From assembly GCA_963825315.1 (NCBI GenBank), contig CAWGST010000001.1, positions 270,556 through 334,555 on the forward strand: a stretch of DNA of 64,000 bases, in the 5' to 3' direction. The stretch comes from an uncultured Verrucomicrobiae bacterium (GTDB taxonomy: Bacteria > Verrucomicrobiota > Verrucomicrobiia > Limisphaerales > Palsa-1400). How positions within the stretch are numbered: the stretch's first letter is position 1; every line of letters starts with the position of its first letter. The notes below the pieces were generated by a model that saw nothing but the letters and a program-made list of their open reading frames with translations, was not told the DNA's origin and did no database searches. This document shows, piece after piece, positions 4,460 through 38,058 of the stretch. Made by a program: the position numbers and the translations under genes.

Positions 4460-6837
4460 ATATAACGGAAAACAGCACGGCCTTCGGCGCGCCGGGGATC
4501 GAGCCTCGCTGGACCTCCAGCGCCAAGGAGGGATTCGGCACGGCCTATCACACCAGTTGCCGGCTCTGGTTCACCCTGAGCCACGGCATTGTCAACGAGA
4601 TTTATTATCCGTCGGTTGATCAGCCCAACACGCGCGATTTTCAATATCTGATCAGCGACGGCGAATCCTTCTGCCATGAGGAAAAGAGCGACCTGGACCA
4701 TGAGATGGAATATCCGGAGAAGGGCTGCCTTTTTTACCGGCTGACCAATTCGGAGCGCAACGGCCGCTACCGGGTGATCAAACACATATTGACAGACCCG
4801 CACCGCTCGGCGCTGCTCATCCGCACCAAACTGGAGATACAGGACAAAACGCTGCGGGGCAAACTGCGGCTCTACGCGCTGCTGGCGCCGCACATGGAAC
4901 GTTGCGGCGCGGGCAATTCCGGCCGCCGCACGGAAATCAGCGGGAGCAAACTGCTGCACGCGCAACGGGGCAATTTTCACCTGGTTATGGGATGCACGAC
5001 GCATTTTTCGCGGATGTCGGCCGGCTACGCCGGCGCCAGCGACGGCTGGCAGGATTTGCGCAATTTTAAAATGGACTGGGAGTTCGCCTCGGCCGAAAAC
5101 GGCAATATTGCATTGACAGGAGAGATCGACCCGCGGCGGGGGGAAGAATTCACGGTGGTCATTGCCCTGGGCCAAAGCTATCCGAGCGCGGCGGCCAAGT
5201 TGTTGCAATCGCTGGCGGACCCTTTTGAGAAACACCGGGAAACCTACGTGCGGCAATGGAAGCGCACGGTGGTGGACGCGGCGCATGAATTCCACGAAGA
5301 CACCGGCGATGGCGGTTCCACCTACCGGCTCAGCCGCTGCATCCTGCTGGCGCATGAGGACAAGGTCTTCGAAGGCGCCATCGTCGCCTCGATGAGCATT
5401 CCGTGGGGCGAGACAAAAGGGGACAATGACCTGGGAGGGTACCATCTGGTGTGGACGCGCGATCTGGTGCAAAGCGCGACCGCGCTGCTGGCCACGGGCC
5501 AGACGGCCACTCCTTTGCGCGCCATGATCTGGCTGGCGGTCATCCAGCGGCCGGACGGGAGTTTTCCGCAGAATAGCTGGATCAACGGGCGCATGTATTG
5601 GGCCGGATTGCAATTGGATGAAATCGCCGCGCCCATTCTGCTGGCCTGGCGCTTGCGGCGGGAAGGCGTGCGCCTCGGCCAATGCGATCCGTGCATGATG
5701 ATCCGGCGGGCGGCGGCCTTTCTGCTGTTGGAAGGGCCGGTCACGGCGCAGGACCGCTGGGAGGAAAATGCGGGTTACTCGCCCTCCACACTGGCCACGA
5801 TCATCGCCGGGCTAGTCTGCGCGGCGGATTTCGCCCCCCTGGAAGCGGACAAGGAATTTATTCTGGCTTATGCCGACTGGCTCGAAGCGCACATCGAAGA
5901 TTGGACGGTGACGACGCGCGGGGAGTTGGCCGAGGATTTTCCGCGCCATTACGTTCGCATCAACCCGACCGATCCCATCACGCCCGATCCGCACGCCGAC
6001 CCCAATACGACAATGATTCAAATTGCCAACGGCGGCGGGCTGCATGAGGCGCGCAACGTCGTGGGCGGGGATTTTCTGCACTTGGTGCGTTATGGGATAC
6101 GGGCAGCGAGCGATTCGATCGTGCGCTCTTCCCTTGAGGTGATCGACCGCGTGTTGAAGCGGGACTTGCCGCAAGGGCCGTGCTGGCGCCGTTATAATCA
6201 CGACGGCTACGGACAAAAGCCGGACGGCGGCGCTTTCGACGGGACCGGGGAAGGCCGGTCGTGGCCGATTCTGACCGGCGAACGCGGGCATTATGAATTG
6301 GAGGCGGGACAAGATCCGATGCCGTTCATCAAAGCGATGGAAGCCTTTGGCAACCAGGGCGGAATGATATCCGAACAGCTCTGGGACGCCGATGATCTGC
6401 CCAATGACAAAATGAAAAAAGGGCGTCCGACCGGGGCGGCGATGCCGTTGTGCTGGTCGCACGCGGAATACATCTCGCTGGTGCGGAGCCGGCATGACGG
6501 GGTCTGTTTTGATCGGATTGAACCGGCCTACCAACGTTATGTGGCCAAGCCGGTGACTCACCGGCACGAGATGTGGACGTTGCGCCATCAGATCCGGCGC
6601 ATACCACGCAAGAAAATATTGCGGGTCATCCTTGCCGACGCCGCGGCCATTATATGGTCGGCGGACCAGTGGGCAACCACCAACAACATGGAGACGGCCC
6701 GGAACGAGGCGCTCAATTTGTGGTCTGCGGATTTTGCCACTGAAAACTTGCCCCAGGGCGCGGTGCTGGAGTTTACTTTCTTCTGGAAGAAGACCCAGCG
6801 GTGGGAAGGGCGAAATTTTGCGGTGACCATCGAGTAA
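4456..6837 (+). CDS. GH15 glucoamylase / glucodextranase-like glycoside hydrolase
   Basis: 793-aa ORF. The N-terminal FGAPGIEPRWTSSAKEG...VNEIYYPSVDQPNTRDFQYLISDG is typical of the bacterial glucoamylase N-domain. The central region WGETKGDNDLGGYHLVWTRDL...DRWEENAGYSPSTLA matches the GH15 (alpha/alpha)6 catalytic region. Confidence 0.85.
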   Translation: MNITENSTAFGAPGIEPRWTSSAKEGFGTAYHTSCRLWFTLSHGIVNEIYYPSVDQPNTRDFQYLISDGESFCHEEKSDLDHEMEYPEKGCLFYRLTNSERNGRYRVIKHILTDPHRSALLIRTKLEIQDKTLRGKLRLYALLAPHMERCGAGNSGRRTEISGSKLLHAQRGNFHLVMGCTTHFSRMSAGYAGASDGWQDLRNFKMDWEFASAENGNIALTGEIDPRRGEEFTVVIALGQSYPSAAAKLLQSLADPFEKHRETYVRQWKRTVVDAAHEFHEDTGDGGSTYRLSRCILLAHEDKVFEGAIVASMSIPWGETKGDNDLGGYHLVWTRDLVQSATALLATGQTATPLRAMIWLAVIQRPDGSFPQNSWINGRMYWAGLQLDEIAAPILLAWRLRREGVRLGQCDPCMMIRRAAAFLLLEGPVTAQDRWEENAGYSPSTLATIIAGLVCAADFAPLEADKEFILAYADWLEAHIEDWTVTTRGELAEDFPRHYVRINPTDPITPDPHADPNTTMIQIANGGGLHEARNVVGGDFLHLVRYGIRAASDSIVRSSLEVIDRVLKRDLPQGPCWRRYNHDGYGQKPDGGAFDGTGEGRSWPILTGERGHYELEAGQDPMPFIKAMEAFGNQGGMISEQLWDADDLPNDKMKKGRPTGAAMPLCWSHAEYISLVRSRHDGVCFDRIEPAYQRYVAKPVTHRHEMWTLRHQIRRIPRKKILRVILADAAAIIWSADQWATTNNMETARNEALNLWSADFATENLPQGAVLEFTFFWKKTQRWEGRNFAVTIE

Positions 6838-7529
6838 TGGACCAACGACATCACGTGACAGCGGAAGCGGTCGGATCCAGTCAACGCCGAATGACGGTCT
6901 GTTATGCCGCCGGGTGGCATTTTTTCCGGTTTTATTTCTCGGTTTATCATCGCTTCCGGGTGTTTAACGCTGAGCGAGTGCCGTTGCAAGGGCCGGTCAT
7001 CCTGGCGTCCAATCACGCCAGTTATATCGATCCGCCCCTGGTGGGCGCGGGCGTGAGACGGCAGATCAACTATCTGGCGCGTGATTCCATTTTTCGCGTG
7101 CCGGTGTTGGCCTCCATCCTGCGCTCGTGGGAAGTTGTGCCGGTGGACCGGGACGGCGGCACCGGGCGGGGCCTCAAGGCGATACTGGAGCGATTGGGCC
7201 GCGGCGGGGCGATCATTTTGTTCCCGGAAGGAACGCGCTCGCGGCACGGGGAATTGAACCCGGCGCGCTCCGGGGTGGGTTTGGCGGTGATCAAATCCAC
7301 CGCGCCGGTGGTGCCGGCGAGGGTTTTTGGAACGTACGCGGCCTATGGCGCGCAAATGCTCGTGCCGCGGCCCCGTCCGCTGGCTGTCAAGTATGGCCGT
7401 CCGCTGTATTTTGAGGCGTTGCGGGCGGAGGCGCAAAGCTGCTCCAAACAGCGCTTGAAGGAGATTTACCAACAGGTGGCGGATGAGGTCATGGCAGCGA
7501 TTGCCGGCCTCGAACCGAAAGAAGATTGA
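6837..7529 (+). CDS. plsC: 1-acyl-sn-glycerol-3-phosphate acyltransferase
   Basis: Carries acyltransferase motifs NHASYIDPP and FPEGTRS. The likely ATG at 6837 overlaps the TAA of the GH15 gene (TAATG). ORF-track start is 6801. Confidence 0.8.
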   Translation: MDQRHHVTAEAVGSSQRRMTVCYAAGWHFFRFYFSVYHRFRVFNAERVPLQGPVILASNHASYIDPPLVGAGVRRQINYLARDSIFRVPVLASILRSWEVVPVDRDGGTGRGLKAILERLGRGGAIILFPEGTRSRHGELNPARSGVGLAVIKSTAPVVPARVFGTYAAYGAQMLVPRPRPLAVKYGRPLYFEALRAEAQSCSKQRLKEIYQQVADEVMAAIAGLEPKED

Positions 7530-8291
7530 TGATGAAAGCTGTCATTTTGGCGGCAGGCAAGGGAACGCGCATGGGCGGGTTGACCAGCGACCTGCCAAAA
7601 CCGATGCTGCGCGCGCAGGGCAAACCGATCCTGGAACATATTCTGGAAGGTTTGATGGAGGCCGGGGTGCGGGATTTTTTTATCGTCACCGGCTTTCGCG
7701 CCGAAGTGGTTGAAGGCCATTTCGGCGATGGAAAAAAATGGGGCGCCCGGATCAATTACGGCCGGCAGAGGGTGCAGGACGGGACGGGCAAAGCGCCTGA
7801 AGTGGCAAAGGAATTCGTCGGAAGCGGCGATTTTGTCCTGACTTACGGAGATATTCTGGTCCGGCCGCAAACTTACCAGGACATGCTGCGGCGCTATGCG
7901 GAGGGAACTTTTTCCGGAACTGGTCACCTGCACGGGAAGCGAGGATGTGACCCAAGGCGGACTCCTCCTTTTCGACAAGGCCTTCCGCCTGCGCCGCCTG
8001 ATTGAAAAGCCCGGCCCGGCCCAACTGGACCAACTCCGCCGCGAAGGCGACCTGCCGCCGGGAAGCACCGCCTGGTATAACGCGGGCATCTACATTTTCA
8101 AGCCGTCATTGTTCGACTTTACAGCCCGGCTGCAAAAGTCGCCGCGCGGCGAGTACGAATTGACCGACGCGATCAGCGCGATGCTGGCGGCGGGCCATCG
8201 TTTGGCGGGATTGGAAATCCAGGGGCGCTGGGTGGATGTGCGCGACCCGCAAGTGCTGGCGGCGCTGGAAAAAGAAGCCAGTTCATCATAA
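7529..8291 (+). pseudogene. Sugar-phosphate nucleotidyltransferase, reading frame broken near 7905-7925
   Basis: The N-terminal ORF (7526..8005) carries KAVILAAGKGTRMGGLTSDLPKPML. The conserved continuation ELVTCTGSEDVTQGGLLLFD...WYNAGIYIFKPSLFDF...EYELTDAI lies in the +1 frame (ORF 7896..8291). The tail of the first frame (GHLHGKRGCDPRRTPP...) looks non-coding. Confidence 0.7.
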
Positions 8292-26173: not shown

Positions 26174-28248
26174 TCAGTTTGAGAAGAATTTTTCGTCCTT
26201 GAGCATCGGGAGAACTTTTTGGGCGATCGGATCTGAGGCGAAATGCTTCTGAACACACTGGTCGCCCAGGTAATTCGCGAGCGCGAGAAAGATCATTCCT
26301 TGGTCAAGCACGAGGTATTTATAGGCGACTTCGCCGGAAACGGGGTCGACGGCGTCGTAGAATCCATACTGGCCGTAGATGTCATATTTCTCGATCAAAT
26401 TGCGAAGGTTCGCAATGGCCTCGGCGGGTGTGACATAGAGGGCGAGCGCGGTCACGTGCGGCGTGACGACTCCCGCCTTGTAGCCGCGAACGCCGAGCAC
26501 CTTCACGCCATATTCCGAGTAGCTGTCGGTGGCCGTCATGGAGCAGGGCGACATCCCCCACACGGGATATTTCAACGTTTCAAGGGCATAACGGCGCTGG
26601 ATCACCGCGTGGATCACGTCATTGGTTCCGACGTTTTCCGGTCCGTATTGCTTTTCATCGATGATGACGGTCGGCATCAGCGCCTCGAAAAGACTGCCGC
26701 CCCAGCTTGGAACATATCTGAGACCGTTCCATTCGTACCAGCCGCCGATCGTTTCGTGTCTGCGCACGGTTTTCGCCTTGCGCTCACGTGGCGTGAGCGA
26801 TTGCCAGTCCGCGTTGGACGGGAATGTTCGCAGGAGCCGGAACCAGTGTTCCTCTGGAACATCGCCCTTGCCGATGGCGATCATGCTGCCGGCGCGCGAC
26901 TCCGCGTAGAGCAGGCCATAATTATAGTCTGCGCGACATTTCATGTGGACGTAGAAGCCGTGGTTCATCACCTGATCGACATCATCATAAAAGAATTTGT
27001 AGTTACCGCGATCGATGAGTTTCGTACAGCGCGGGATCAATTCCGGAAAAGCCTGCCGCACTACCATGAGTCCCGACGTCAGCCACGCGCTGTCGGCGAA
27101 CGAAATGAAGTTGCTCGTGCGCTCGTTCGTCGTCGTGTCGTAATAGTTGTAGAGAAACCCTTCGTATGATTCCATTCCCTCGATCGAGTCGAGCGTGTGG
27201 CGCAGGCGTTCGAGAGCTTCGTCGCGCGTGATCAGCTTAAGATCACAGGCGGCCGTGACCGACAGGAGGTAGATGCCGATGTCGGTGACGTTTGAATAAT
27301 CGCCGGCGCGGCTTTCCGCGGGATCGACCGATTTTTTGCCGAAGCGCACCTGGTCGAAAGGCAGCCGATGCTCCCTGTCACAGAGCGAATCGATGCCGGT
27401 CCAGGTGTCGCGCGCGACACGCAGCAGAAATTCTCGATCATCCTTCGGAAACGAGGATTTGTCCGCGAGCAGGGTGGTGGGCCATCCTGCGAGGCGCTGA
27501 CGGATGAACGGCCGGGCCGCGACCTCTCCTCCGTGGGCCTGTTCCCATGCGCGTTTCTTCGGAACGGGCACGGGATCGTGGATGGACGGGCCGGGATCGC
27601 CGGTTTTGACAAAGGCGATGTCGTCGATGAAAACCGCCCCGTGCGTCACCTTTTCGCGGCGCGAATGGAATCCGATGACGAACTGGTCGAGATCCTTCCA
27701 CGTCTCGATGCCGTTCATCATGTTGAGCGGAATGCGGAAGCGCTGCCACTCATCGGTGATGCCCTGGATGACGAAGCTGCCCTTGAGCGTTTCGCCCGGT
27801 GAGTCCGGCTTGGGCTGCTTCACTTCGATTTTGAGCGACTTGGCGAAGCCCTGTTTCGGATCACCCTTTACCCAGAGCTCCAGGTGGTCATAGTCGCGGG
27901 CGTCGAGCCGGTTGAGGCTCATCCAGAATCCGTTCTGGGACGATTTGTTCGGATTGAGCCGGTATGCGAGGTAGAGCGAGTTGCCTTCAGTGCCGCGTTT
28001 GGTCTGCGCATCGAGGATGCACGTGCAATCCGATTTGGAATCAGTCGGATCGAGATTCCACGTTCCAGCATTGCCGCCAAGATTGTTTTGAATGCTCGGA
28101 CGGTCGAAGTCATGCACGACGAGCCGCTTCAGCGTGGCATCGGCAGCGGGTGCGTTCGTGGGAGCGACGGGGTCGGCCCGACATAGGAAAGCGGTTAGAA
28201 CGAGAACACAAACAGTGGAGGGGAACCTGGAGATCGCAAAGATCATAA
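26174..28248 (-). CDS. Secreted DUF3131 / GH144-like glucanase-family protein with N-terminal CBM-like module
   Basis: The internal ATG at 28248 gives a signal peptide (MIFAISRFPSTVCVLVLTAFLC). The N-terminal jelly-roll-like module ends in AVFIDDIAFV. The C-terminal region (YSNVTDIGIYLLSV...FLYNYYDTTT...SAWLTSGL) resembles the glucoamylase-like DUF3131 family. The family call is from memory. Confidence 0.6.
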
Positions 28249-28435
28249 GAAAAGGGCTGCCTGTTTGGCAGCCCTGGCTGGCTGCACCTGCTTGATACTC
28301 CCAGTCAAGCCCTCGTTGCTTTTTGCTATCATCGGTAAAGATCAGTCCCGCATATTGCATTGTTTTCCTTTCTCATTGCAGGCGCAGTGCGTTGGCGGCG
28401 TAACCCGCCGTCCCCATCCGTAAATGGCTTGCTAT

Positions 28436-28960: not shown

Positions 28961-29271
28961 CTCGCGCTGACAAAATCAACGCCTGCAAGACGGCCATTGT
29001 GGAATGGATTGGCCCGTAGCGCCACGCCCAACGACTGCGTTGGACCTTGCGCCAACGTCAAATCATTTTCCGCTTGCTTTTCCAAGACTTTGAACGGACG
29101 ATCGGAACTATGCTGCAGCATGATCACCGACGTCTGGCCACCTTCTGGCGAGTCACCGTCAAAGCTTGGCTCCGACCCCCGGGTCTGATCTGCGTCCGGC
29201 AAAACCAAAAACCAAAAGTGTCAACCGATTATCCGGAAAAGTGGTCTCATAATTAACTTTGCCGCTCAATT

Positions 29272-31362
29272 ATGATAGATCAGGAAATAACTGCGGTTCA
29301 CAAAACAAAACTGGAAGACCGTATTCATTTTTCACAATTAGCTGCCTATGGTGCCGGGGGCATTATTCCCATTGCCCTCTTCAACATTGCCGGCATACTC
29401 GTAGGCTTGATGGGAAATATAAGCCTGGGGCTCAGTGCCTTCTGGCTGGGCGTAATCTTGATCATCCCGCGTTTGTGGGATGCGCTTTCTGATCCCATCA
29501 TCGGTCACCTTTCCGATAATACAAGGACCCGTTGGGGGCGCCGGCGTCCATACCTGCTGATAGGAGGCATACTGGTTGCTGTCTTTTTTGTGGTCATGTG
29601 GTGGATCCCCAAAGGTGATAGGGTGCGGGTCTGGTTCCCGACAGAAACGGGCTTCCAGGCGTTTCAGCTGGTCTATATTCTTTTCTCCCTCCTGTTATTT
29701 TTCACTGCCTGTAATATTTTTGAGATCCCTCATGGTGCCCTGGGCATGGAGATGACCACTGACTACCACGAACGCACTCGCCTTTTCAGTGCCAAGAGTT
29801 TTTCCGGCAATCTTTTTGCCATGAGCACACCCTGGCTTTTTGCCCTCGCCAACATGAAACTTTTCAAAGGCGCAGGAAACGAAGCCGATGGCATGCGTTA
29901 TGTGTCCATCATGATCGCGGCTTTGATCATCCCCCTCTCTTTCTGGTGGTTTTTCAAATTGCGCGAGCCGGGATTTGCAAATGCGGCAAAGCATGAAAGG
30001 ACCCCCTTCTGGAAAGATATCAAACGCACCGCCAGCAACAGGAACTTTCTTATGCTGACCCTGACAATTTTCACCCTGGCCATGGGTTTCAATTTCGTCC
30101 AGCTTCTCGGGTCATACATCCCTATTTTTTATGTTTTCGGGGGTAACAAAGCTGCGGGCGCTTATCTGCTCGGAATCAACGGTACCATCTGGGCCATCAC
30201 CGGACTACTGGCCGTTTTCCTACTGAACTGGATCAGCCCAAAATTGGGCAAACGGAATACCCTTACGATGGCCATCTTACTCATGTGCCTGGCACAACTC
30301 TCTAAGGTTGTCTGCTACAATCCTAGCTTTCCCTACCTGATCATTATACCCACCGTTCTGCTTTCCGCGGCGATGCTGTTCTTCTTCACACTTGGATCTT
30401 CTATGGTAGGCGATATCTGTGATGAAGATGAATTAAAGACGGGTTATCGCGCCGAGGGAAGTTACTACTCTATATTCTGGTGGTTGATTAAAATGGGAAC
30501 GGCATTTGCCAGCTTTGTCGCAGGCGCACTGATAGTATTGACCGCCTTTGACCAAATCCAGGTTACGAAAGTCGATAGCATCTCGGGGATTATCAGGGGA
30601 ATTCGCAGCGAGGTTCAGTCCTGGGGAGGCGATCAGGCTTTCAGCGGCACCAACACGCAGTTGCTGGGGAAAACCAAAACGCAGGTCACTGAGGCACTCG
30701 ATGAGGCAAAAGAATACGTGAGCTACCTGCAGAAGAAATCTGTAAAACAACAAAACAAATCTGAGGAATCTGTTACTAAATACCAAACCGGCCAGCGCGA
30801 CAGGTTGCTGAATGCATTGTTCGCGGTAAAAGCCTCGGCCGCAGGACTGGAAGAGTTGCGATTGCATTTGGAGAACCTTGGGCCCCAGGCCCTGGACTCC
30901 CAGGTCAAAGCCACTGTGGCAGAAGCCATTCGCCTGACACTTCAAACCAAGGTTGAGAAAGCCAGGATGTATTCGTTTGAGCTTATGTCGCATCTGGAAT
31001 CCAAATCAGAGGAGAGTAAAAACAGTGTAGAGCATTATCAGGAGATCATCAGGAACATCACCACATTAGATAACCACCTTGCCAGCCTGAATGCGGCGTC
31101 ATCCCTGCATATTGTGGACAATGAGCTGGCAACAATAGAAAAGGACATTTTACCGCTGACAAAACAAACACCTTATACCCTTCTGATGATGCGGGTGGTC
31201 GAGATCGGGCTGCCCTTGTTATTGAGCATTTTTTCCATCTTTTTTCTCCTCCGTTACTCGTTGACTGAAAATCGGTCGCAGGAGATCAAAAATCTTTTAA
31301 AGCAACGTAATGAGGAACGTTCAAAAGAGGCCATCAAGGCGACGGGATCAGCGACTGTTTAA
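29272..31362 (+). CDS. GPH-family (MelB/YicJ-like) glycoside:cation symporter with a ~208-aa insertion between the last two TM helices
   Basis: Carries the GPH hallmark DALSDPIIGHLSDNTRTRWGRRRPYLL. I count 11 TM segments up to aa ~426. A hydrophilic heptad-rich segment follows (aa ~427-634), and then the canonical last helix plus tail LLMMRVVEIGLPLLLSIFSIFFLLRYSLTENRSQEI. Confidence 0.8.
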   Translation: MIDQEITAVHKTKLEDRIHFSQLAAYGAGGIIPIALFNIAGILVGLMGNISLGLSAFWLGVILIIPRLWDALSDPIIGHLSDNTRTRWGRRRPYLLIGGILVAVFFVVMWWIPKGDRVRVWFPTETGFQAFQLVYILFSLLLFFTACNIFEIPHGALGMEMTTDYHERTRLFSAKSFSGNLFAMSTPWLFALANMKLFKGAGNEADGMRYVSIMIAALIIPLSFWWFFKLREPGFANAAKHERTPFWKDIKRTASNRNFLMLTLTIFTLAMGFNFVQLLGSYIPIFYVFGGNKAAGAYLLGINGTIWAITGLLAVFLLNWISPKLGKRNTLTMAILLMCLAQLSKVVCYNPSFPYLIIIPTVLLSAAMLFFFTLGSSMVGDICDEDELKTGYRAEGSYYSIFWWLIKMGTAFASFVAGALIVLTAFDQIQVTKVDSISGIIRGIRSEVQSWGGDQAFSGTNTQLLGKTKTQVTEALDEAKEYVSYLQKKSVKQQNKSEESVTKYQTGQRDRLLNALFAVKASAAGLEELRLHLENLGPQALDSQVKATVAEAIRLTLQTKVEKARMYSFELMSHLESKSEESKNSVEHYQEIIRNITTLDNHLASLNAASSLHIVDNELATIEKDILPLTKQTPYTLLMMRVVEIGLPLLLSIFSIFFLLRYSLTENRSQEIKNLLKQRNEERSKEAIKATGSATV

Positions 31363-31425
31363 GCTGGGCCACGAGTATGCCCTTCGGACTGTGACGCTTA
31401 GTAATAAAAATATACAATCAAGAGA

Positions 31426-33862
31426 ATGACATTCAATATTAAAGAAAGCAATTTTTATTTAAATAAAAAGAAAGTGTTCGTGAATTCAGGGGAGATCCAT
31501 TATTTCAGGGTCAGACGGGAACTGTGGGACAAGCACCTGGAAGCAGCCAGGGAGGCCAGGCTTAACCGCCGTCAGCACTTACGTCCCTTGGGCATGGCAC
31601 GAATCAGAGGAAGGCGTTTTTGATTTTGACGGCGCCTCATGCCCGGAACGCGACCTCGAAGGCTGGCTGCAGCGATGCCAGGCCAACGGATTGACCTGCA
31701 TCGTCAAACCGGGGCCGTTTATCCTGGCCGAGACCCGTGGAGCGGGGCTACCGGACTGGTTCATGGATGAATACCGGGAAGAAGTCAAGATGCGCAACAG
31801 TAAGGGTGAGACCGTGCCAGGCGACGGAGTCAGTCTGTTCAACCCAAAATTCCTGGAGAAGGTAACGCATTGGTACGACCAGGTCATGCCCTTGATCAGC
31901 AAAGGCGAAATATCGGCCGGCGGTCCGATTATCATGATGCAGATCTGTAATGAGATCGGTGTATTCTCATGGCTGGCGCACCAGGGAGACTATTCTGAAA
32001 ATGTCAGGGCTCGTTTCATTTCATACTTGTCAACCAAATTCAAAAATATTGCGGAAATTAACGGCCGGTGGGGAACGGTTTACCCGGACTTTGCCGACAT
32101 AGAACTTCCCCCTGACGGCAGGCTTTCTTATGCCTCAAAGGTTGACCGAAGCCGTGATTATGAATGGCATTGTTTCTGGAGAACCTATTACGGCGATTAT
32201 TTAAGAATGCTGACCGGCATGGCCAGGGACAGGGGGGTGACGGTTCCGTTTTATCATAATCTTCCGGGCTGGATCTATGGAAGCGGCTATGAATTCCCGG
32301 TCAATATCACCATGTACCAAGATCTCTTCGGGGATAAGAGCGAGATCATGTTCGGCGTCGATCATATCCCGGAATTCCTTTCGCACCGTAACATGCACGA
32401 TGATCGAATCATAAACGACATCACTTTTGCCATGCAGGGGAACAAGCCGTTGTTTGCCGCCGAGCTCCAGTGCGGCTCCCGGGAATACCACGTGGTGACG
32501 AACCCCCGTGAGATGGAACTTTTCTACAAAGCAAGCATCGCCCACGGACTGACCGGCTGGAATTATTACATGTTCTCCCAGGGGCGAAACCCAAGGCACA
32601 GGGGCTATTCCGGGGAAACGTTCTACTGGTTCACCCCGTTGACGCCGGAAGGCGAGCGCACCAGCGCTTTCCCCCTGATTAAACGGATGAGCAAAATCGT
32701 TAAGACTGCCGAAAACCTGATCGTTGAGGCAAAACGTAAGGCAGAGGTCTGCGTCCTTTTCTATCCGCCTTATTATACCACCGAACTCGAGAGACCTGAA
32801 ACAGGAGCAAGCGAGCTTCTATACAACCCTTCAGCCATCCGCAGGCCGGCCTATTTCGACGGCTTGCTGAAAGTGCTCCAGGTGCTCAACATTGATTATG
32901 ACATGCTGGACCTATGCCAGGCTACAACTGAACAATTAGGCAAATACAAGCAGGTCTGGGCGTTCAGCACCGATGAAATGGATGCCGGGGATCAACAGAC
33001 CCTTGTTGATTATACCAAGGCCGGCGGCATGTTAGTTATGTTTCCGTATCTGCCTGAACGCGGGATGTCGCAAAAGCCTTGCACCATCATACGAGATGCC
33101 ATCTTAGTAAAGCCATCCGAGACGGAGATCATCGATTCTCCCCTGATCGATATATATGACTTGAAGGACATCAAGTGTGCCAATCCCCAAATCATTTATG
33201 ATGAGCCATCGCTCGCCGATGCAGAGGTCATCGCAAGGACGATTCGCGGTTCCGCGTGCGGATTCACAAAAGCCCTTGGCGGCGGCGCCATCATACACCT
33301 GGGAACGTGGATCGGATTTGACACTGAAAGGCATAAAGAAGTGTATGAAGCCATCCTCACGAAATCAGGTTCAAAGCTCAGGCAGGCATCAGCATCCAAT
33401 GACAATATAGCAGTCAGGGAGCGCTTTACGCCTGATCATGCCGCAGTTCTTTTCATTGGCAACTATTACAACGACGAACAGGACGGCAAAGTCACCTATA
33501 CGCATCCTGAAAGCGGGGAGGCCATCAATGTACCATACGCGCAGGACGGGATGATATGGCCGCCCCTTTACGGCGTATTGACCCCGGTGTGCATGGATGT
33601 TTCTGATGGCATTAAGATCCTGCATAGCACCTCGGATATTCTCGGTGTTGCAGGGAAAAACGGCCAGATGGAGATCACCATGTACGGAGATCGAGACCTG
33701 GCCGGGGAGATCGTTTTTGAGGGTGCCATGGTTGATAAGATCAAATCTGCGACAATTTGCGGCAACCCTGTAAAAATGGTTCGTGACGACACACGCATCA
33801 CATTCATATACAGTCACAAACATAAACAAGAAATAACCATAAGTATCAAGATAATATCATGA
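31426..33862 (+). pseudogene. GH35-like (clan GH-A) beta-galactosidase-family hydrolase, reading frame broken near 31558
   Basis: ORF 31426..31623 has FVNSGEIHYFRVRRELWDKHLEAAREA and then junk. The +1 frame continues GLTAVSTYVPWAWHESEEGVFDFDG...CIVKPGPFILAETRGAGLPDWF...MMQICNEIG (ORF 31691..33862). An extra nucleotide around gcc-a-ggc explains the split. Confidence 0.7.
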
Positions 33863-33993
33863 AAAGTCACTCTGTGAACCTCCGTATAACAATTATGTAT
33901 AAGTTGCACAGACTTATACAGCGGGATTACAGAATAACACAGAGGACTCATAATACACTCTTATAACCAATCACTTTGAAAGACTAGAAGAAG

Positions 33994-36900
33994 ATGTCCT
34001 TGAACAACAATATGACTCTTAAGAATTCTCTTGGTTTATCTTTTGCATTCCTTAAAAATGGCTCTCTGAAGAGCATGGAAGCTCATCTTATCAGGATAAA
34101 CCTCAAAGCTGCAACTCCTTTTTCAAAACCAGGTGCGAACCTCTACCTGAGGAAAAGAAAACAACCATTTGAATATACCGCTCTTCTAGGCCCGGAAGGT
34201 AACAGCCTTTTTAAAATGGCCGGCGATGCTTTTATTGCCAGGGGAGGCTGGGCCGGTCTTGATTACACCTGCGTGCTGCGACTGTCAAAGAACAGCCTGA
34301 GCTGGCAGTGGAGTGTTGGTATCAAAAATCTGTCTGACAATCCTGTTGAACTGGATCTGATTTACGTCCAGGACGCCGGGCTGAAGCCAGTGAATGCCGG
34401 GTTGATCAACGAATACTATGTGAGCCAGTACCTGGAACGCCGCATCCTCGAAGATAAAATCTTTGGTGCCGTGGCATGCTGCCGTCAGAACATGAAGGAA
34501 TCAACCGGCCATCCCTGGTTTATGATGGCATGCAAAAACACAGCAGTGGCAGGTAGTGTCGACGGCATGCAGTTTTATGGCAAGACATACCGGGAAACAG
34601 GCATCCCGGAAGGGCTGCTTGCAGATAACCCGGGGGGTGATTATGCCGGGGAATCTTCGGTATTTGCCTTGCGGGAAACACCGTTCAGCCTGGACGCCGG
34701 CGGGGTTCATAACAGTGTTTTTGTTGGTACCTATCTGCCGGATCATCCACAGGCCACATCAGAGGATGATCTTAACCGCTTACCCAGCCTAATGCTCGAA
34801 TGCAATGATGAGACCCCGTTTCAGCACGCGAATGACCTGATTTCCCCGGCAAGGAATTTATTCAATACAACTCCTTTCTTACCGGTGGATGATCTGAATG
34901 ATGATGAGCTTAACCGCTTTTTTGATAAGGAAAGGCGCCATCGTGAAGATGAAAATGGCCGGTTGCTGTCATTCTTCAGCCTGCAAAACAACCATGTCGT
35001 GCTGCGGGCTAAAGAGGTAATGGCTGACCGGCCGCATGCGCACATTATGCAAGCCCGGGCCGGGTATGTGCCTGATGAAAGCATTATGTCCACCACCTCC
35101 TTTGCATTTGGGGTTTTCAATTCACATATAACACAGGGCAATACCATTTTCAACGTGCTGCTCTCGGTCTGCACCAGCCAGTTCAATCTCGCCCCGGAAA
35201 CGGGTCAGCGGATCTTTGTGGAGGTGGATGGAAGGCGCTATTTGCTTGGGGTTCCCTCTGCTTTCGAGATGGGCCTGAATCACTGCCGGTGGATTTATAA
35301 ACACGGCAATTACTGCTTCCAGGTCCGTTCCTGGACCTCTAAAGCCGCTCCGCAGGTCAATATGGACTTTAAAGTGATCAGTGGAAATAAAGTGAAGTTG
35401 CTCATTACTCATGATTTTGATGCTCTTGACGGCTGGACCATTTACCCCGGGAGCAAAGCCGGTGAATATATGGCCAAACCAAAGGCAGACAGCATGATCG
35501 CGGGCAAATTTCCGGATGCACGATTCAGCATTTTGATAAACAGCGCCGGTTCTGATTACCGGGCTTGTGGCGACGAAGCGCTATATCCTCACCATAACGG
35601 CCAGGGAGGCTGTTTGTTCGTCCTCGATGTCCGTGAAACCGCAGATTTCTGCATGAGTTTCATCGGTGAAGCGCATTCTGCCGCCGATGCGGTTAAATTT
35701 GAAGATCCTGATCGTCAGTGGCTCTCAGATTGCCAGGATGCACGCTCTTCCTGGAAAGATTTGAGTTTGAACCTTTCCCTGCAAGGAATCCAGGAAGACA
35801 TCGCAGCCATCCAGGAGATCCTGCCCTGGTATGGCATGAACGCCATCACCCATTTTCTGACCCCTTACGGGCTGGAGCAATTCAGCGGCGCCGCCTGGGG
35901 CACGCGCGATGTGTCCCAGGGGCCGCTTGACCTGCTGTTAACCCTTGAAAAGTATGATGAAGCCAGGCAAGTGTTGTGCATCATATTCTCAAACCAGAAC
36001 CCGGATGGCGGATGGCCGCAATGGTGGATGTTCGACAGCTACTCGAATATCCGGGCTGACAGCTCCCACGGCAATATCTTTCACTGGTGCATCATTGCCC
36101 TCAGCAACTATGTCGAAGTTACCGGCAACCTGAAAATTCTGGACGAGGTCCTTCCTTATTATCATGAAAAAGGTCCTGCCCAGGCTGAGCAAACGCCGCT
36201 CAGCGAGCATGTTGACCGGCTTATTAAAATGATCGTTGATTCATTCATTCCGGGCACTGCATTTGCACCCTTTGGCGGCGGTGACTGGAATGATTCCCTG
36301 CAGCCGGTCAGTAAGGAATTAGCACAACGAATGATCTCAAGCTGGACAGTCGAGATGAATTACCAGGCCTTTTCTCAATACCAATTGGTATATGAACAGA
36401 CCGGTAATACAAGAAAAGCCGGAGAACTGAAAGAAATCTGCGAAAAGATCAAAGCTGATTTCAACAAATATCTGGTCAAGGATGGCGTCGTTGCGGGATA
36501 TGGCCTGGTTGAAGACGACCGTAGCATTAGCGTACTGCTACACCCAAGTGATACCAAAACCGGGATCCGGTACAGTATCTTGCCAATGAACCGTGGCATC
36601 ATCAGCGAGATATTCACTAGCGAACAGGCGCAGCATCACCAGGATCTCATTGAACTGCATCTGAAAGGCCCTGACGGCGCCCGCCTTTTGGACCGTCCGC
36701 TAAGGTACAAAGGGGGTATCCAAACCATTTTCCAGAGGGCGGAAAGCAGCACCTTCTTTGGCCGCGAGATTGGCCTGATGTACGTGCATGAGCATATCCG
36801 TTATGCAGAAGCACAGGCCCGTACAGGCAGGGCGGATGCCTTCATGAAAGCGCTCCGCCAAGCCATCCCGGTGGGGTACAGGGATGTTGTCCCATGCGGG

Positions 36901-37356
36901 GATATCCGCCAGTCAAATTGCTATTACAGCAGCTCGGATGTTATCTTCAGGAACCGTTATGAGGCGGATGAACGTTACGATGAAATACTAACCGGCAAGA
37001 TCACGCTTAGAGGCGGATGGCGGGTGTATTCCAGCGGGCCTGGTATATACATCGGCCTGGTCGTTTCGCGATTGCTTGGCTTGCGGATTGTATCAGGGAA
37101 GATCATCGTCGATCCTGTCATGCCGCATTCCCTGGATGGTTTATCCGCCTCAATGGATTTATTGGATCATGCTGTGACGTTCAATTATGCTGTCAAGGAA
37201 GGTAATTTCAGCCCCAAAGCTGTTTCCATTAATGGCAAGGCCATTCAGTTCAAGTATGAAGAAAACAAATACCGCAAGGGCGGAGCAGTGATGTCAGTTG
37301 AGCAATTTTTAGCCATGCTGGATCGGCAGCAGAATGTTGTGGAGGTAAGGTTATAG
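33994..37356 (+). CDS. Large GH94-like (alpha/alpha)6 glycoside phosphorylase/hydrolase superfamily protein (GH94/GH149/GH161-type)
   Basis: 1120-aa ORF. The central/C-terminal region (SGAAWGTRDVSQGPLDLLL...NPDGGWPQWWMF...GGGDWNDSL...FFGREIGLMYVHEHIRYAEAQARTGRAD) resembles the catalytic barrel of cellobiose-phosphorylase-like enzymes. The exact family cannot be assigned by eye. Confidence 0.55.
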   Translation: MSLNNNMTLKNSLGLSFAFLKNGSLKSMEAHLIRINLKAATPFSKPGANLYLRKRKQPFEYTALLGPEGNSLFKMAGDAFIARGGWAGLDYTCVLRLSKNSLSWQWSVGIKNLSDNPVELDLIYVQDAGLKPVNAGLINEYYVSQYLERRILEDKIFGAVACCRQNMKESTGHPWFMMACKNTAVAGSVDGMQFYGKTYRETGIPEGLLADNPGGDYAGESSVFALRETPFSLDAGGVHNSVFVGTYLPDHPQATSEDDLNRLPSLMLECNDETPFQHANDLISPARNLFNTTPFLPVDDLNDDELNRFFDKERRHREDENGRLLSFFSLQNNHVVLRAKEVMADRPHAHIMQARAGYVPDESIMSTTSFAFGVFNSHITQGNTIFNVLLSVCTSQFNLAPETGQRIFVEVDGRRYLLGVPSAFEMGLNHCRWIYKHGNYCFQVRSWTSKAAPQVNMDFKVISGNKVKLLITHDFDALDGWTIYPGSKAGEYMAKPKADSMIAGKFPDARFSILINSAGSDYRACGDEALYPHHNGQGGCLFVLDVRETADFCMSFIGEAHSAADAVKFEDPDRQWLSDCQDARSSWKDLSLNLSLQGIQEDIAAIQEILPWYGMNAITHFLTPYGLEQFSGAAWGTRDVSQGPLDLLLTLEKYDEARQVLCIIFSNQNPDGGWPQWWMFDSYSNIRADSSHGNIFHWCIIALSNYVEVTGNLKILDEVLPYYHEKGPAQAEQTPLSEHVDRLIKMIVDSFIPGTAFAPFGGGDWNDSLQPVSKELAQRMISSWTVEMNYQAFSQYQLVYEQTGNTRKAGELKEICEKIKADFNKYLVKDGVVAGYGLVEDDRSISVLLHPSDTKTGIRYSILPMNRGIISEIFTSEQAQHHQDLIELHLKGPDGARLLDRPLRYKGGIQTIFQRAESSTFFGREIGLMYVHEHIRYAEAQARTGRADAFMKALRQAIPVGYRDVVPCGDIRQSNCYYSSSDVIFRNRYEADERYDEILTGKITLRGGWRVYSSGPGIYIGLVVSRLLGLRIVSGKIIVDPVMPHSLDGLSASMDLLDHAVTFNYAVKEGNFSPKAVSINGKAIQFKYEENKYRKGGAVMSVEQFLAMLDRQQNVVEVRL

Positions 37357-37362
37357 AGATTC

Positions 37363-37560
37363 TTATTCCTTATGTTCGTCTTCAATTGTCAGTTGGGCGT
37401 AGTAGCGGCCGTTGCGCACCCACAAACCGCGAATCGGGTGCTTGCGCTCGTCGAACACCTTGAGGTAGGGTAACGCCTGATGATGAACTTCAGCCACAAC
37501 GTGTGCGGCGGCGGCCGGAATTGCCTGGCTGCCATTGCTTGGGCTGGTATTGCCTTTCAT
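37363..37560 (-). pseudogene. N-terminal stub (~65 aa) of a tyrosine-integrase-like gene
   Basis: ORF 37363..37578. LPYLKVFDERKHPIRGLWVRNGRYYAQLTIEDE resembles integrase N-terminal arm-binding regions. The frame terminates (HKE*) exactly where G+C drops and the GH94-like gene ends (37356). Confidence 0.4.
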
Positions 37561-37641
37561 GGGGCAACACCAGCACAATCACCAGCACAACGTCAAATGA
37601 GAAGAAGCGTAAAAGTTGTAAGGTGTTCATAATCAATATGT

Positions 37642-37725
37642 GCGCGAGTGGTGGAATGGCAGACACGCCAGACTTAGGATCTGGTCCCGCAGGGGGTGGA
37701 GGTTCGAGTCCTCTCTCGCGCACCA
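37642..37725 (+). tRNA. tRNA-Leu (anticodon UAG), class II with long variable arm, CCA encoded
   Basis: Folded by hand. The acceptor GCGCGAG pairs with CTCGCGC. The anticodon stem is CCAGA/TCTGG with loop CTTAGGA (anticodon TAG). The T-arm is GGAGG-TTCGAGT-CCTCT, followed by a terminal ACCA. Confidence 0.9.
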
Positions 37726-37848
37726 TTTGTCTGCAAAGGCGCGGGCCAATTCCAACTCGATTTCAGTCTTTCGCCACAATCGAACCACTGATTTGCGGCA
37801 AAGAACCGCCAGAAAGGCAAGATGGGATGATAGGAGGTCTGAAAAACC

Positions 37849-37930
37849 CGTAACACCGTAACAAGTGTTGATAGTCAACGACTTAACCCGTAACATTTGC
37901 CGTTACAAACCCGTAACAAGCCCGTTACAT
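37849..37930. repeat. Cluster of six 8-mers: CCGTAACA x4 (direct) and CCGTTACA x2 (= TGTAACGG inverted)
   Basis: CCGTAACA at 37849, 37857, 37889 and 37912. CCGTTACA at 37901 and 37923. The cluster lies 124 nt 3' of the tRNA-Leu. Confidence 0.9.
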
Positions 37931-37956
37931 TAACGATAAAGCCGGCTTCCGAAGTG

Positions 37957-38058
37957 AATTAAGATTTAAGAAGTAAGAATTAAGAAATCTGAAAAACAGC
38001 CAAAAGTCGAACCGGATTCCTCTTTTGACTTCTTAATTCTGCCTTCTTCCTTCTGCCT
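37957..38058. repeat. Inverted pair of AT-rich TTCTTAA-type repeat blocks
   Basis: gaattaagatttaagaagtaagaattaagaaatc (37957-37990) faces cttcttaattctgccttcttccttctgcc (38030-38058). It contains the reverse complement of the 16-mer TTCTTAATTCTTACTT (37972-37987) and the 20-mer CTTCTTAATTCTGCCTTCTT (38030-38049). Confidence 0.85.

Follow-up and report, generated by a model that had tools for sequence, protein, structure and literature searches.

Folded extracytoplasmic domains are rare in transporters of the MFS, and those that have been studied (PepT1/2, SV2, AmpG1 and Rv1410) couple transport to a partner or to the hand-off of substrate. The loop that carries the AmpG1 domain is equated with the canonical TM9-10 loop, which is also the site of the PepT extracellular domain. 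Acinetobacter baumannii AmpG1 has 14 TM helices, and its periplasmic domain, inserted after TM11 and before TM12, binds Slt; the extracellular domain of PepT1 and PepT2 binds trypsin (PMC13507758). In each of these MFS importers, one of the extracytoplasmic C-bundle loops holds a domain of some 200 residues, and this domain binds the enzyme by which the substrate is made (PMC13507758). A different kind of elaboration is found in Rv1410, where transport depends on a TM11-TM12 extension that has been proposed to guide substrate to a periplasmic partner, with LprG as the partner (PMC10576003). In Rv1410 and MHAS2168, and reportedly in QacA, the extension consists of helices that reach out into the periplasm next to the cavity. 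The precedents that we found in the canonical loop 11-12 are all short helix extensions of this type, about 30-40 (31-38) residues and roughly 20 Å long, in DHA2 lipid and drug exporters (PMC10576003).

The second body of work that bears on the present locus concerns the utilisation of beta-1,2-glucans. The characterised clusters import Sopn by means of an ABC transporter and a dedicated Sopn-binding protein (PMC8861115). The SOGP cluster of Listeria innocua and the SGL/IaSGT cluster of Ignavibacterium album contain the same enzymes as the cassette described below (a GH94 SOGP, a GH35 SGT and a GH144-type glucanase), but they rely on the ABC transporter and binding protein, whereas the cassette described below has a single secondary transporter with a predicted periplasmic domain in one of its loops. 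A literature search for this TM11-TM12 domain architecture, or for beta-1,2-glucan clusters served by an importer of the MFS, returned analogies only and no description of either.

The cassette lies in a window of 64,000 nucleotides (the whole stretch of DNA that was analysed) from an uncultured Verrucomicrobiae bacterium, and all positions given here are those of the window.

A divergent GPH symporter

The transporter is encoded by a complete gene of 696 codons on the forward strand (29272..31362), and it belongs to the GPH/MFS_2 group of cation:sugar symporters. The Pfam model MFS_2 (PF13347) matches residues 49-429 with 224.2 bits, well above its gathering threshold of 27 (E 2.9e-66); the match spans profile positions 25-389 of 427 and so ends short of the last helix. 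The NCBIfam model TIGR00792 ("gph") matches in two stretches with 161.5 bits, below its cut-off of 231.35. As judged from these profile matches, the protein is a member of a divergent GPH subfamily in which the TIGR00792 model appears to be interrupted by an inserted segment.

Residues 35-395 of MelB align colinearly with residues 51-426 of the transporter, that is, from TM2 to the end of TM11 (E 5e-13). The core from TM1 to TM11 (residues 1-424; 29272..30543, forward strand) carries a MelB-type cation-site motif, D70-x-x-S73-D74. In the alignment this corresponds to D55, N58 and D59 in TM2 of MelB, with both aspartates kept and N58 replaced by serine, and D124 in TM4 of MelB corresponds to a glutamate, E151. 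Transport is likely to be coupled to a cation on the evidence of these residues, which do not distinguish Na+ from H+. The core is near-invariant among 279 homologues, with a mean entropy of 0.53 bits. A full-length AF2 model is weak in the core (mean pLDDT 64); Foldseek searches with it returned MelB and MFSD2A and otherwise generic MFS matches that are uninformative on the insert.

The transporter thus shares with MelB and other members of the GPH family (TC 2.A.2; MFS_2) a homologous core and, by prediction, 12 TM helices with both termini inside. The two differ in the TM11-TM12 loop, which is some 13 residues long in MelB and around 210 in the transporter, where it is predicted to be folded, and apparently also in substrate, which is a galactoside for MelB and probably a beta-1,2-glucooligosaccharide here.

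Topology of the protein

Hydropathy analysis (Kyte-Doolittle, 19-residue window) places all of the core hydrophobic helices before residue 431, followed by one strong helix at residues 635-665. The latter is TM12 (residues 634-662 in the AF2 model, with a hydropathy peak of 2.42; 31171..31257, forward strand), and the invariant junction L629-T-x-Q632-x-P634-Y-T-L-x-M-M-R lies just before it. It is followed by a K/R-rich tail (residues 663-696; 31258..31359, forward strand) that is predicted to be helical and cytoplasmic. Between the core and TM12 lies a hydrophilic segment of 208 residues, residues 427-634 (30550..31173, forward strand), in which hydropathy stays below the threshold of 1.5 throughout residues 432-634 and reaches a maximum of only about 0.8 near residue 520. 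The predicted layout is therefore that of MelB-type proteins, with two six-helix halves and both termini in the cytoplasm. Lysine and arginine are distributed as expected for this layout, the cytoplasmic loops having 28 of them and the short loops on the periplasmic side 5; the C-terminal tail is basic too. Because of the homology to MelB, the count of eleven helices before the insert and one after it, and the strong positive-inside bias, the insert most probably faces the periplasm.

These results agree closely with an earlier note on this DNA, which had described an insert of about 208 residues between TM11 and TM12, followed by a canonical final helix, in a loop that faces outward. The coordinates proved exact, the order of hydrophilic segment and final helix is evident from hydropathy, and the outward orientation is backed by the considerations just listed. 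Extra TM helices in the insert, which the note had named as grounds for abandoning the idea, appeared neither in the hydropathy profile nor in the AF2 model. The note had also called the segment heptad-rich, and this part of the description held only in a limited sense, as discussed below.

Predicted fold of the insert

An AF2 model of the insert alone consists of six antiparallel helices packed in a compact bundle (pLDDT 89.6, pTM 0.86). The model predicts a self-contained, up-down six-helix bundle rather than one long coiled coil. Helix H1 (residues 425-450; 30544..30621) leaves the membrane after TM11 and opens with the family-invariant sequence T424-x-F-D-x-x-Q-V-T-x-V-D-x-x-Q-G. Helix H2 (residues 461-495; 30652..30756) runs antiparallel to H1 and bears a conserved stripe made up of A475, E478, Y482, L486 and E489. 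Helix H3 (residues 503-535; 30778..30876) has the lowest conservation among the helices, and H4 (residues 542-581; 30895..31014), with 40 residues and a length of about 60 Å, is the longest; L555, L557, K563, A564, L571, H574 and L575 are conserved in it. The domain ends in a short hairpin of H5 (residues 586-605) and H6 (residues 612-630), together at 31027..31161, with conserved S585, H588, Y589, L619 and L629. All of these helices are encoded on the forward strand.

Covariation gives some support to this arrangement. In an MI-APC analysis of variable columns, whose signal is usable but noisy, an antiparallel H1-H2 hairpin (i+j of about 917) and an H3-H4 hairpin (i+j of about 1077-1085) were detected, and the base of H1 was placed near residue 582 and residues 507-509. 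A mean-field DCA of the insert region was dominated by artefacts from invariant columns and was discarded.

The description of the insert as heptad-rich can now be qualified. Some 28-residue windows, but only some, are strongly amphipathic; a 3.5-residue hydrophobic periodicity over the whole insert does not exceed that of shuffled sequences (Fourier analysis of hydropathy, p = 0.41), and a periodicity of 3.67 residues exceeds it weakly (p = 0.017). A canonical coiled coil was accordingly rejected, there being no sustained 3.5-residue signal and the monomer closing as a bundle of six separate helices in the model. Self-BLAST found no internal repeats in the insert.

Searches for known domains placed the insert in no described family. 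Against Pfam there was no match at E < 0.3 (searched to E 10). Foldseek searches with the insert model found nothing in the PDB at E <= 0.001, the best match having an E of 0.056 and TM-scores being at most 0.34, and no significant neighbour in BFVD. The periplasmic helical-bundle sensors (4HB_MCP/Tar and TorS) and elongated bundles such as XaxA and the TTYH ectodomain are likewise extracytoplasmic, all-helical, antiparallel and anchored by flanking TM helices. A 4HB_MCP or TorS-like sensor domain was nevertheless not found by Pfam at E < 0.3, and the Foldseek match to TorS had an E of 0.57; as far as the model goes, the resemblance to TorS, XaxA, TTYH and the like is one of generic helix packing only.

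The transporter precedents introduced above fare similarly. The AmpG1 and PepT domains have Ig-like beta folds, whereas the present insert is predicted to be all-helical and lies in the canonical loop 11-12; with no strands in the AF2 model and no Pfam match, it falls outside the class of Ig-like importer domains. Compared with the Rv1410-type extensions, it is a six-helix domain of 208 residues in a putative GPH importer, and the relationship is one of analogy only, with no similarity in sequence or structure; MHAS2168 appeared in the Foldseek search with the full-length model just as a weak whole-MFS match.

Distribution and evolution of the insert

Relatives of the transporter fall into over 200 protein clusters and are encoded in 391 species genomes of the Verrucomicrobiota and Bacteroidota. 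The carriers, about 400 environmental species in all, are Bacteroidota and Verrucomicrobiota of soil, peat and lakes, among them culturable ones such as isolates of Draconibacterium or the Prolixibacteraceae. Out of these 391 genomes 80 loci were retrieved, and each of them contains the insert, with its length conserved, as does every homologue that was read. Equal length and full coverage were found for more than 120 clusters (73-100% identity). Shorter matches (419-603 residues) were considered as possible close relatives that lack the insert, and the four that were read (P0167, P0178, P0237 and P0249) turned out to be N-terminally truncated gene calls or fragments in which the insert is retained. 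No family member lacking the insert but otherwise more than 80% identical was seen among the homologues read.

The rate of evolution is two- to threefold higher in the insert than in the core, with pairwise dN/dS values of 0.21-0.60 and 0.09-0.24, respectively; the values for the insert, all below 1, are those of real coding sequence under selection. Its columns are nearly free of gaps (maximum gap frequency 0.07), and about 25 positions within it are near-invariant in the alignment of 279 homologues. The conserved residues are identical across phyla. The strongly conserved positions lie at the base of H1, the lower stripe of H2, the lower part of H4, the start of H5 and the end of H6. With the helix register that we assigned, 18 of 92 positions below about 20 Å are strongly conserved, versus 6 of 81 above. 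The gradient is weak, however: on the same assigned register, height and entropy correlate with a Spearman coefficient of 0.16-0.21 (p = 0.02-0.03), and mean entropy yields p = 0.14 in a Mann-Whitney test.

Among 1.84 billion representative proteins the insert matches just 32, and the ten that were read (10/10) all show it in the TM11-insert-TM12 context. From these matches the domain appears to be exclusive to this transporter family. The earlier note had considered the architecture unusual for the family, and this judgement is upheld by so small a number of matches together with the lack of a Pfam match or a structural neighbour. It had also raised the prospect that the reading frame is a fusion of two genes, which is at odds with the finding of the same architecture in 80/80 loci and every homologue read. 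The insert is a trait of a family of beta-1,2-glucan cassette transporters, not an oddity of a single genome, and by the AF2 prediction it constitutes a conserved, confidently foldable and so far unannotated domain.

The surrounding beta-1,2-glucan cassette

The genes around the transporter point to a beta-1,2-glucan pathway. Upstream and divergently transcribed (26174..28360, reverse strand) is a gene for a secreted enzyme of 728 residues, of the GH144/GH189 type, that acts on beta-1,2-glucan (Glycoamylase/DUF3131 in Pfam), with matches to PDB entry 8WY1 (E 3e-41), to a cyclic glucan synthase domain (2e-37) and to the GH144 SGL 5GZH (2e-9). Downstream, on the forward strand, is a GH35 beta-1,2-glucosyltransferase (SGT; 31426..33862), identified by Pfam and as a homologue of IaSGT (PDB 7VKX, E 5e-121; PMC8861115). 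DNA alignment to the loci L025 and L008 revealed that a single extra nucleotide near 31556-31559 breaks this gene in two, and the cassette may therefore be in decay in this genome. The next gene (33994..37356, forward strand) encodes SOGP, a GH94 1,2-beta-oligoglucan phosphorylase with SOGP_N, SOGP_2nd, GH94 and SOGP_4th domains (PDB 5H3Z, E 2.7e-172). The low-GC island around the cassette, as delimited by the GC profile, ends on the right at a tRNA-Leu gene (37642..37725, forward strand; ARAGORN). A scan for promoters and terminators around the transporter gene found sites no more numerous than in shuffled sequence.

This association is general in the family. The neighbours are almost always a GH94 SOGP, usually a GH35 SGT, and GH144-type glucanases, and the order transporter, GH35 SGT, SOGP is found in 73/80 and 59/80 loci, respectively, with most of the remainder cut by contig ends. 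The GH144-type genes lie upstream of the transporter, and in loci with annotated neighbours they are adjoining and encode secreted proteins. Two further co-encoded GH144 homologues have 465 and 750 residues. A protein of 1061 residues with a signal peptide is encoded immediately upstream in most of the listed Bacteroidota loci and in L025, and is absent from the window. A divergent clade of the transporter occurs within a SusC/SusD PUL together with GH144, GH3 and SOGP, and there GH97, FG-GAP and CBM proteins take the place of the 1061-residue protein. The combination of SOGP (GH94), a GH144-type glucanase and a probable oligosaccharide importer in one place is the one expected of a beta-1,2-glucan locus. 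SOGP and SGT start without a hydrophobic, signal-peptide-like segment (sequences read by eye), and for this reason both are taken to be cytoplasmic; the oligosaccharide would therefore need to cross the inner membrane.

Possible roles of the insert

Substrate capture, partner docking and gating had all been suggested in the earlier note, and the present evidence does no more than tilt the balance among the three. The reading that we favour, tentatively, is that the transporter couples the import of linear beta-1,2-glucooligosaccharides (sophoro-oligosaccharides) across the inner membrane to a cation, and that the bundle forms an entry vestibule that captures the substrate. We infer both the substrate class and the capturing or guiding role. 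The transporter would be part of a horizontally mobile beta-1,2-glucan utilisation cassette, in which the secreted GH144/GH189-type enzyme would cut the glucan outside the cytoplasm, the transporter would import the resulting oligosaccharides, and the cytoplasmic SOGP phosphorylase and GH35 glucosyltransferase would process them. The expanded TM11-TM12 bundle would stand on the C-domain, in a putative placement beside the mouth of the outward-facing cavity. A membrane-proximal set of polar and aromatic residues (D427, Q430, T432, D435, Q438, E478, Y482, E489, K563, H574, H588, Y589 and Q632) may then allow the conserved base of the bundle to prolong the vestibule, so that flexible oligosaccharides, for which a DP of 3 or more is probable, are captured, aligned and fed into the cavity. 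The bundle would in this way take over part of the job done by the solute-binding protein in ABC-type beta-1,2-glucan systems, with its fast-evolving distal half serving as a scaffold. Several considerations weigh against capture. All-helical bundles poor in aromatic residues are atypical carbohydrate binders, and there are 1 W, 5 Y and 3 F among the 208 residues of the insert. The gradient of conservation with height is weak, as noted above. In addition, the conserved base could simply pack against the MFS core, which is conserved to an equal degree.

A serious competitor, though on balance a somewhat unlikely one, is that the bundle is a docking site for the enzyme by which the substrate is made, or for a carrier that brings it, so that products are released at the mouth of the transporter. 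Candidate partners are the GH144/GH189-type glucanase, the conserved secreted protein of 1061 residues and a component on the SusC/SusD side. Docking has precedents in both MFS importers and exporters (PMC13507758, PMC10576003). It would fit the position of the genes for secreted GH144-type enzymes next to that of the transporter in annotated loci, and that of the 1061-residue protein directly upstream in most of the listed Bacteroidota loci and in L025; the fast-evolving distal surface of the bundle would likewise fit co-evolution with lineage-specific partners. However, the periplasmic neighbours vary by clade, yet the conserved residues of the insert are the same across phyla, and conservation is strongest near the membrane rather than at the tip.

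We consider it quite improbable that the bundle binds neither substrate nor enzyme and instead works as a gate or regulator, either a lid over the outward-facing state or an allosteric brake on it, or else as a module for dimerisation or clustering. The invariant motifs at the exit from TM11 (T-x-FD-x-x-QVT-x-VD) and the entry to TM12 (L-T-x-Q-x-P-YTL-x-MMR) would tie any motion of the bundle to C-domain helices, but in MFS transporters TM12 has a supporting role at the periphery, and a lid anchored to it would have to reach across to the cavity. Amphipathic helices could pair between protomers, but the monomer model is already closed and confident and so needs no partner helix, and there is no global heptad signal.

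Two further explanations are highly improbable. A cytoplasmic or partly re-entrant insert with an intracellular role, for instance through a miscounted core helix, could appeal to the low confidence of the AF2 core model, but MelB is colinear from TM2 to the end of TM11, the K+R bias is strong, the tail is basic and the insert lacks a hydrophobic segment. A functionless segment, whether a neutral passenger insertion or an artefact of annotation or assembly such as a two-gene fusion, would accord with the faster evolution of the insert and its lack of a known domain, but is contradicted by its conserved length in all 80 retrieved loci from two phyla, the dN/dS values and near absence of indels, the near-invariant positions, the confidently predicted fold, a continuous reading frame in which TM12, needed by the MFS fold, lies downstream of the insert, and the retention of the insert in the truncated database entries.

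Implications

The vestibule reading can be extended to a bolder proposal, which we regard as unlikely, namely that in the insert a novel type of carbohydrate-binding module, all-helical in structure, gives an MFS symporter high-affinity capture like that of a binding protein and allows the import of long (DP 3 or more) beta-1,2-glucooligosaccharides. If true, this would be a one-polypeptide alternative to binding-protein-dependent uptake, spread horizontally between Bacteroidota and Verrucomicrobiota. In its probable role as an importer, the transporter fills the place of the missing inner-membrane importer in a widespread type of beta-1,2-glucan utilisation locus. The family offers a tractable system, in the setting of beta-1,2-glucan foraging, for studies of how a secondary transporter handles oligosaccharides without a binding protein, and the insert would justify a new domain family entry and a better annotation of the "MFS transporter" genes of about 400 species.

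A predicted periplasmic domain inside a GPH transporter

The transporter gene (29272-31362, plus strand) is a single unbroken ORF encoding 696 amino acids, and the insert lies within it on the same strand at 30550-31173, exactly amino acids 427-634. By sequence, the protein is a member of the glycoside-pentoside-hexuronide (GPH) type within the major facilitator superfamily (MFS). Residues 49-429 match Pfam MFS_2 (E 2.9e-66), with the match ending just short of the last transmembrane (TM) helix because only profile positions 25-389 of 427 are covered. The best NCBIfam matches (gph, MelB, glucuronide transporter and YagG) each score under their curated cut-offs; the core, i.e. the MFS part before the insert, belongs to GPH/MFS_2, yet falls under the stricter TIGR00792 cut-off. 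Among solved structures, residues 35-395 of the Salmonella melibiose permease MelB are colinear with residues 51-426 of the transporter (E 5e-13). The two cores are homologous, but the TM11-TM12 loop has only about 12 residues in MelB versus about 210 in the transporter. The transporter retains, as D70 and D74, both aspartates that TM2 contributes to the cation site in MelB, with MelB N58 replaced by Ser73 and D124 by Glu151, making it likely that transport is coupled to a cation, Na+ or other.

An earlier note on this DNA had described eleven hydrophobic helices, some 210 hydrophilic residues, and then a twelfth helix and tail, and this arrangement is borne out by hydropathy and by the MelB alignment. 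In a scan with a 19-residue window, the hydrophobic helices all lie before residue 431 except for one strong helix at 635-665, and the search for additional TM helices found no segment close to the TM threshold at residues 432-634. Predicted cytoplasmic loops contain 28 Lys+Arg residues, compared to 5 in the short predicted periplasmic loops, and the C-terminal tail is basic. This bias and the standard MFS topology uphold the proposal that the TM11-TM12 loop faces outward, which would locate the insert on the periplasmic side.

Conservation of the insert

Among 5.8 billion proteins, at least 120 clusters are 73-100% identical to the transporter, nearly all of them 680-700 amino acids long with 97-100% query coverage. 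When the most divergent members were used to build a profile, it recovered at least 120 further matches, again of about 690 amino acids. The few shorter entries that were read are internal-methionine starts or fragments, and the insert is still present in all of them. Relatives of the transporter occur in 391 of 185,579 species scanned (one genome per species), and the 80 loci retrieved from these genomes all match residues 1 to about 686, insert included. The transporter with its insert is conserved across two phyla, in about 400 species.

Seven close Verrucomicrobiota genes gave dN/dS values of 0.21-0.60 for the insert, compared with 0.09-0.24 for the core. These values argue that the insert is translated and under purifying selection, about two to three times looser than that on the core. 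Retention at full length in 80 of 80 loci, together with this selection, disposes of the concern that the ORF might be an artefact of gene fusion. An alignment of 279 sequences shows an almost invariant core (mean entropy 0.53 bits) and TM12 (0.59 bits) and a variable insert (1.89 bits) that is practically without indels (maximum gap frequency 0.07). The dS of the transporter core is low (0.11-0.54) between Verrucomicrobiota genomes distinct at the species level (the window versus related loci L001-L008 and L025), consistent with a recent spread of the cassette within this group.

Predicted structure and novelty

When residues 424-636 were predicted alone with AF2 from a 57-sequence alignment (mean pLDDT 89.6, pTM 0.86), the insert was modelled with confidence as an all-helical domain of about 200 amino acids with six helices, H1-H6 (425-450, 461-495, 503-535, 542-581, 586-605 and 612-630). 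The same six helices recur in a full-length model with a low-confidence core (mean pLDDT 64). Mutual information between variable columns fits an up-down helix bundle. In it, H1 and H2 pair as an antiparallel hairpin (454-464, 450-467 and 440-477, with i+j near 917), as do H3 and H4 (515-562 and 536-544/545), and the base of H1 (425, 429) contacts H4 at its end (582) and H3 at its start (507-509). The earlier description of the insert as heptad-rich holds in part: some 28-residue windows are strongly amphipathic, but a 3.5-residue periodicity over the whole insert did not stand out from shuffled sequences (p = 0.41). The insert has no internal repeat and no cysteine. Its longest helix, of 40 residues (about 60 A), would be too short for contact with the outer membrane.

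Several searches argue that this domain is confined to the transporter family. Pfam gave no match to the insert (best E-value 0.31, at chance level), and a Foldseek search of the PDB gave none with E <= 0.001; the top match was XaxA (E 0.056, TM-score 0.27), followed by designed bundles, trypanosome receptors, TorS and TTYH (TM-scores <= 0.34). A BFVD structure search returned nothing. With the insert alone, phmmer found 32 matches among 1.84 billion representative proteins, mostly fragments by length. Ten of these were read, including one full-length protein (P0132, 682 amino acids), and all share one arrangement, in which FD-x-x-QVT-x-VD at the end of TM11 is followed by the insert, then by PL-x-x-Q-x-P-YTLLMMR and TM12. 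On this evidence, the domain is limited to this transporter family and falls outside every described family. The literature that was searched does not describe such a TM11-TM12 insert architecture.

Genomic setting and substrate

Two genes follow the transporter in the window. The first (31426-33862) encodes a GH35 protein homologous to the Ignavibacterium album beta-1,2-glucosyltransferase IaSGT (PDB 7VKX, E 5e-121), and the second (33994-37356, plus strand) SOGP, a GH94 1,2-beta-oligoglucan phosphorylase, which matches PDB 5H3Z at E 2.7e-172. The GH35 gene is split into ORFs 31426-31623 and 31691-33862 by one extra base near 31556-31559 relative to the intact orthologues of 811-814 amino acids at L025 and L008; either the sequencing or assembly is at fault, or the gene is a pseudogene. 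GH35 follows the transporter in 73 of 80 related loci, with SOGP then following in 59 of 80 in the same order, and most of the loci lacking GH35 or SOGP are cut short by contig ends. At L006 (10151-15922), GH35 and SOGP form one 1923-amino-acid ORF, and at L023 (2559-7109) and L026 (3440-7945) a 465-amino-acid GH144 and a 1061-amino-acid secreted protein share one ORF of about 1500 amino acids; these ORFs could be genuine gene fusions, or stop codons could have been lost in the MAG assemblies.

Upstream, on the opposite strand and divergent from the transporter, is a secreted beta-1,2-glucan enzyme of GH144/GH189 type (26174-28360, minus strand), a 728-amino-acid "glucoamylase/DUF3131" protein. 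Its similarity to the cyclisation (transglycosylase) domain in synthases of cyclic beta-1,2-glucan (8WY1, E 3e-41; NdvB/Cgs, 2e-37) far exceeds that to 5GZH, an endo-glucanase of family GH144 (2e-9), and it may thus be a GH189-type transglycosylase or glucanase, not a classical SGL. In Bacteroidota loci, GH144-type genes and the conserved secreted 1061-amino-acid protein usually lie ahead of the transporter. The most divergent insert-bearing clade (P0180/P0132) resides in a SusC/SusD polysaccharide utilisation locus of classical type; the contigs encoding P0180 (L081/L082) carry GH144, GH3, GH97, an FG-GAP/ASPIC protein, SOGP and a pair of CBM-like proteins, of which one bears a Por secretion tail, and no GH35 gene.

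The transporter-GH35-SOGP cassette, at about 29-38 kb of the window, has a GC content of 49-50% versus 57-61% around it, a tRNA-Leu (37642-37725) adjoins the end of this low-GC island (~29000-38000), and its proteins are 69-76% identical between Bacteroidota and Verrucomicrobiota. Together, these features indicate that the cassette was probably gained by horizontal transfer.

SOGP acts on substrates of DP 3 or more. Neither SOGP nor GH35 has an obvious signal peptide on reading of their starts, and both are therefore taken to be cytoplasmic. Given the linkage, these presumably cytoplasmic enzymes and the chain length that SOGP requires, the cargo of the transporter is probably beta-1,2-glucooligosaccharides, possibly longer than disaccharides.

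Possible functions of the domain

Strongly conserved insert positions in the 279-sequence alignment lie at the exit of TM11 (T424, F426, D427, Q430, V431, T432, V434, D435, Q438, G439), in a stripe on H2 (A475, E478, Y482, L486, E489), on H4 (L555, L557, K563, A564, L571, H574, L575), at the start of H5 (S585, H588, Y589) and toward TM12 (L619, then L629, Q632 and P634), with W451 between H1 and H2 and L526 on H3. In a helix register resting on noisy covariation, not on inspected coordinates, D435 pairs with Y482, and D427/Q430 with E489/L486. In that register, most of the strongly conserved positions would be membrane-proximal: they make up 18 of the 92 positions lower than about 20 A and 6 of the 81 higher up. 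Height correlates weakly but positively with entropy (rho 0.16-0.21, p = 0.02-0.03); mean entropy did not differ significantly between low and high positions (p = 0.14). This distribution favors a role beside the transporter mouth. The conserved polar and aromatic base would extend the periplasmic vestibule and help to catch and align a flexible oligosaccharide, with the variable distal half as scaffold. We put this capture role forward tentatively.

The main rival, which we consider possible but somewhat less probable, is that the insert docks a secreted partner. Models are the periplasmic domain of AmpG1, which binds Slt (PMC13507758), the TM11/12 extensions of Rv1410, which work together with LprG (PMC10576003), and the extracellular domains of PepT. 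Like the Rv1410 and QacA extensions, the insert is helical and lies in the TM11-TM12 loop, but it is a domain in its own right and six times their size; with the AmpG1 and PepT domains it shares size and logic, but neither fold nor loop. Docking suits the variable distal surface of the bundle and the secreted GH144-type enzymes, which are a constant presence. A point against it is that the set of secreted neighbors changes from clade to clade, whereas the conserved insert residues stay the same. The uncharacterised 1061-amino-acid protein is a candidate partner. It is length-conserved and immediately upstream of the transporter in most Bacteroidota loci listed (about 4790-7980; e.g. L045, 4806-7979) and in one Verrucomicrobiota locus (L025, 4793-7978), and is absent from the window; only an F5/8 type C domain is recognisable in it, and it has no sequence homologue in the PDB.

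A gating or oligomerisation module is possible but less probable than either of these, and an insertion without function, for a segment apparently under purifying selection, or a topology other than that upheld by the charge bias, is very improbable. Listeria innocua and I. album have characterised beta-1,2-glucan clusters in which sophoro-oligosaccharides (linear beta-1,2-glucooligosaccharides) are taken up by an ABC transporter with a dedicated binding protein (PMC8861115). The import job of that system would here be taken by an MFS transporter, a GPH importer carrying a predicted periplasmic domain within its loop that is new to the databases and literature searched.
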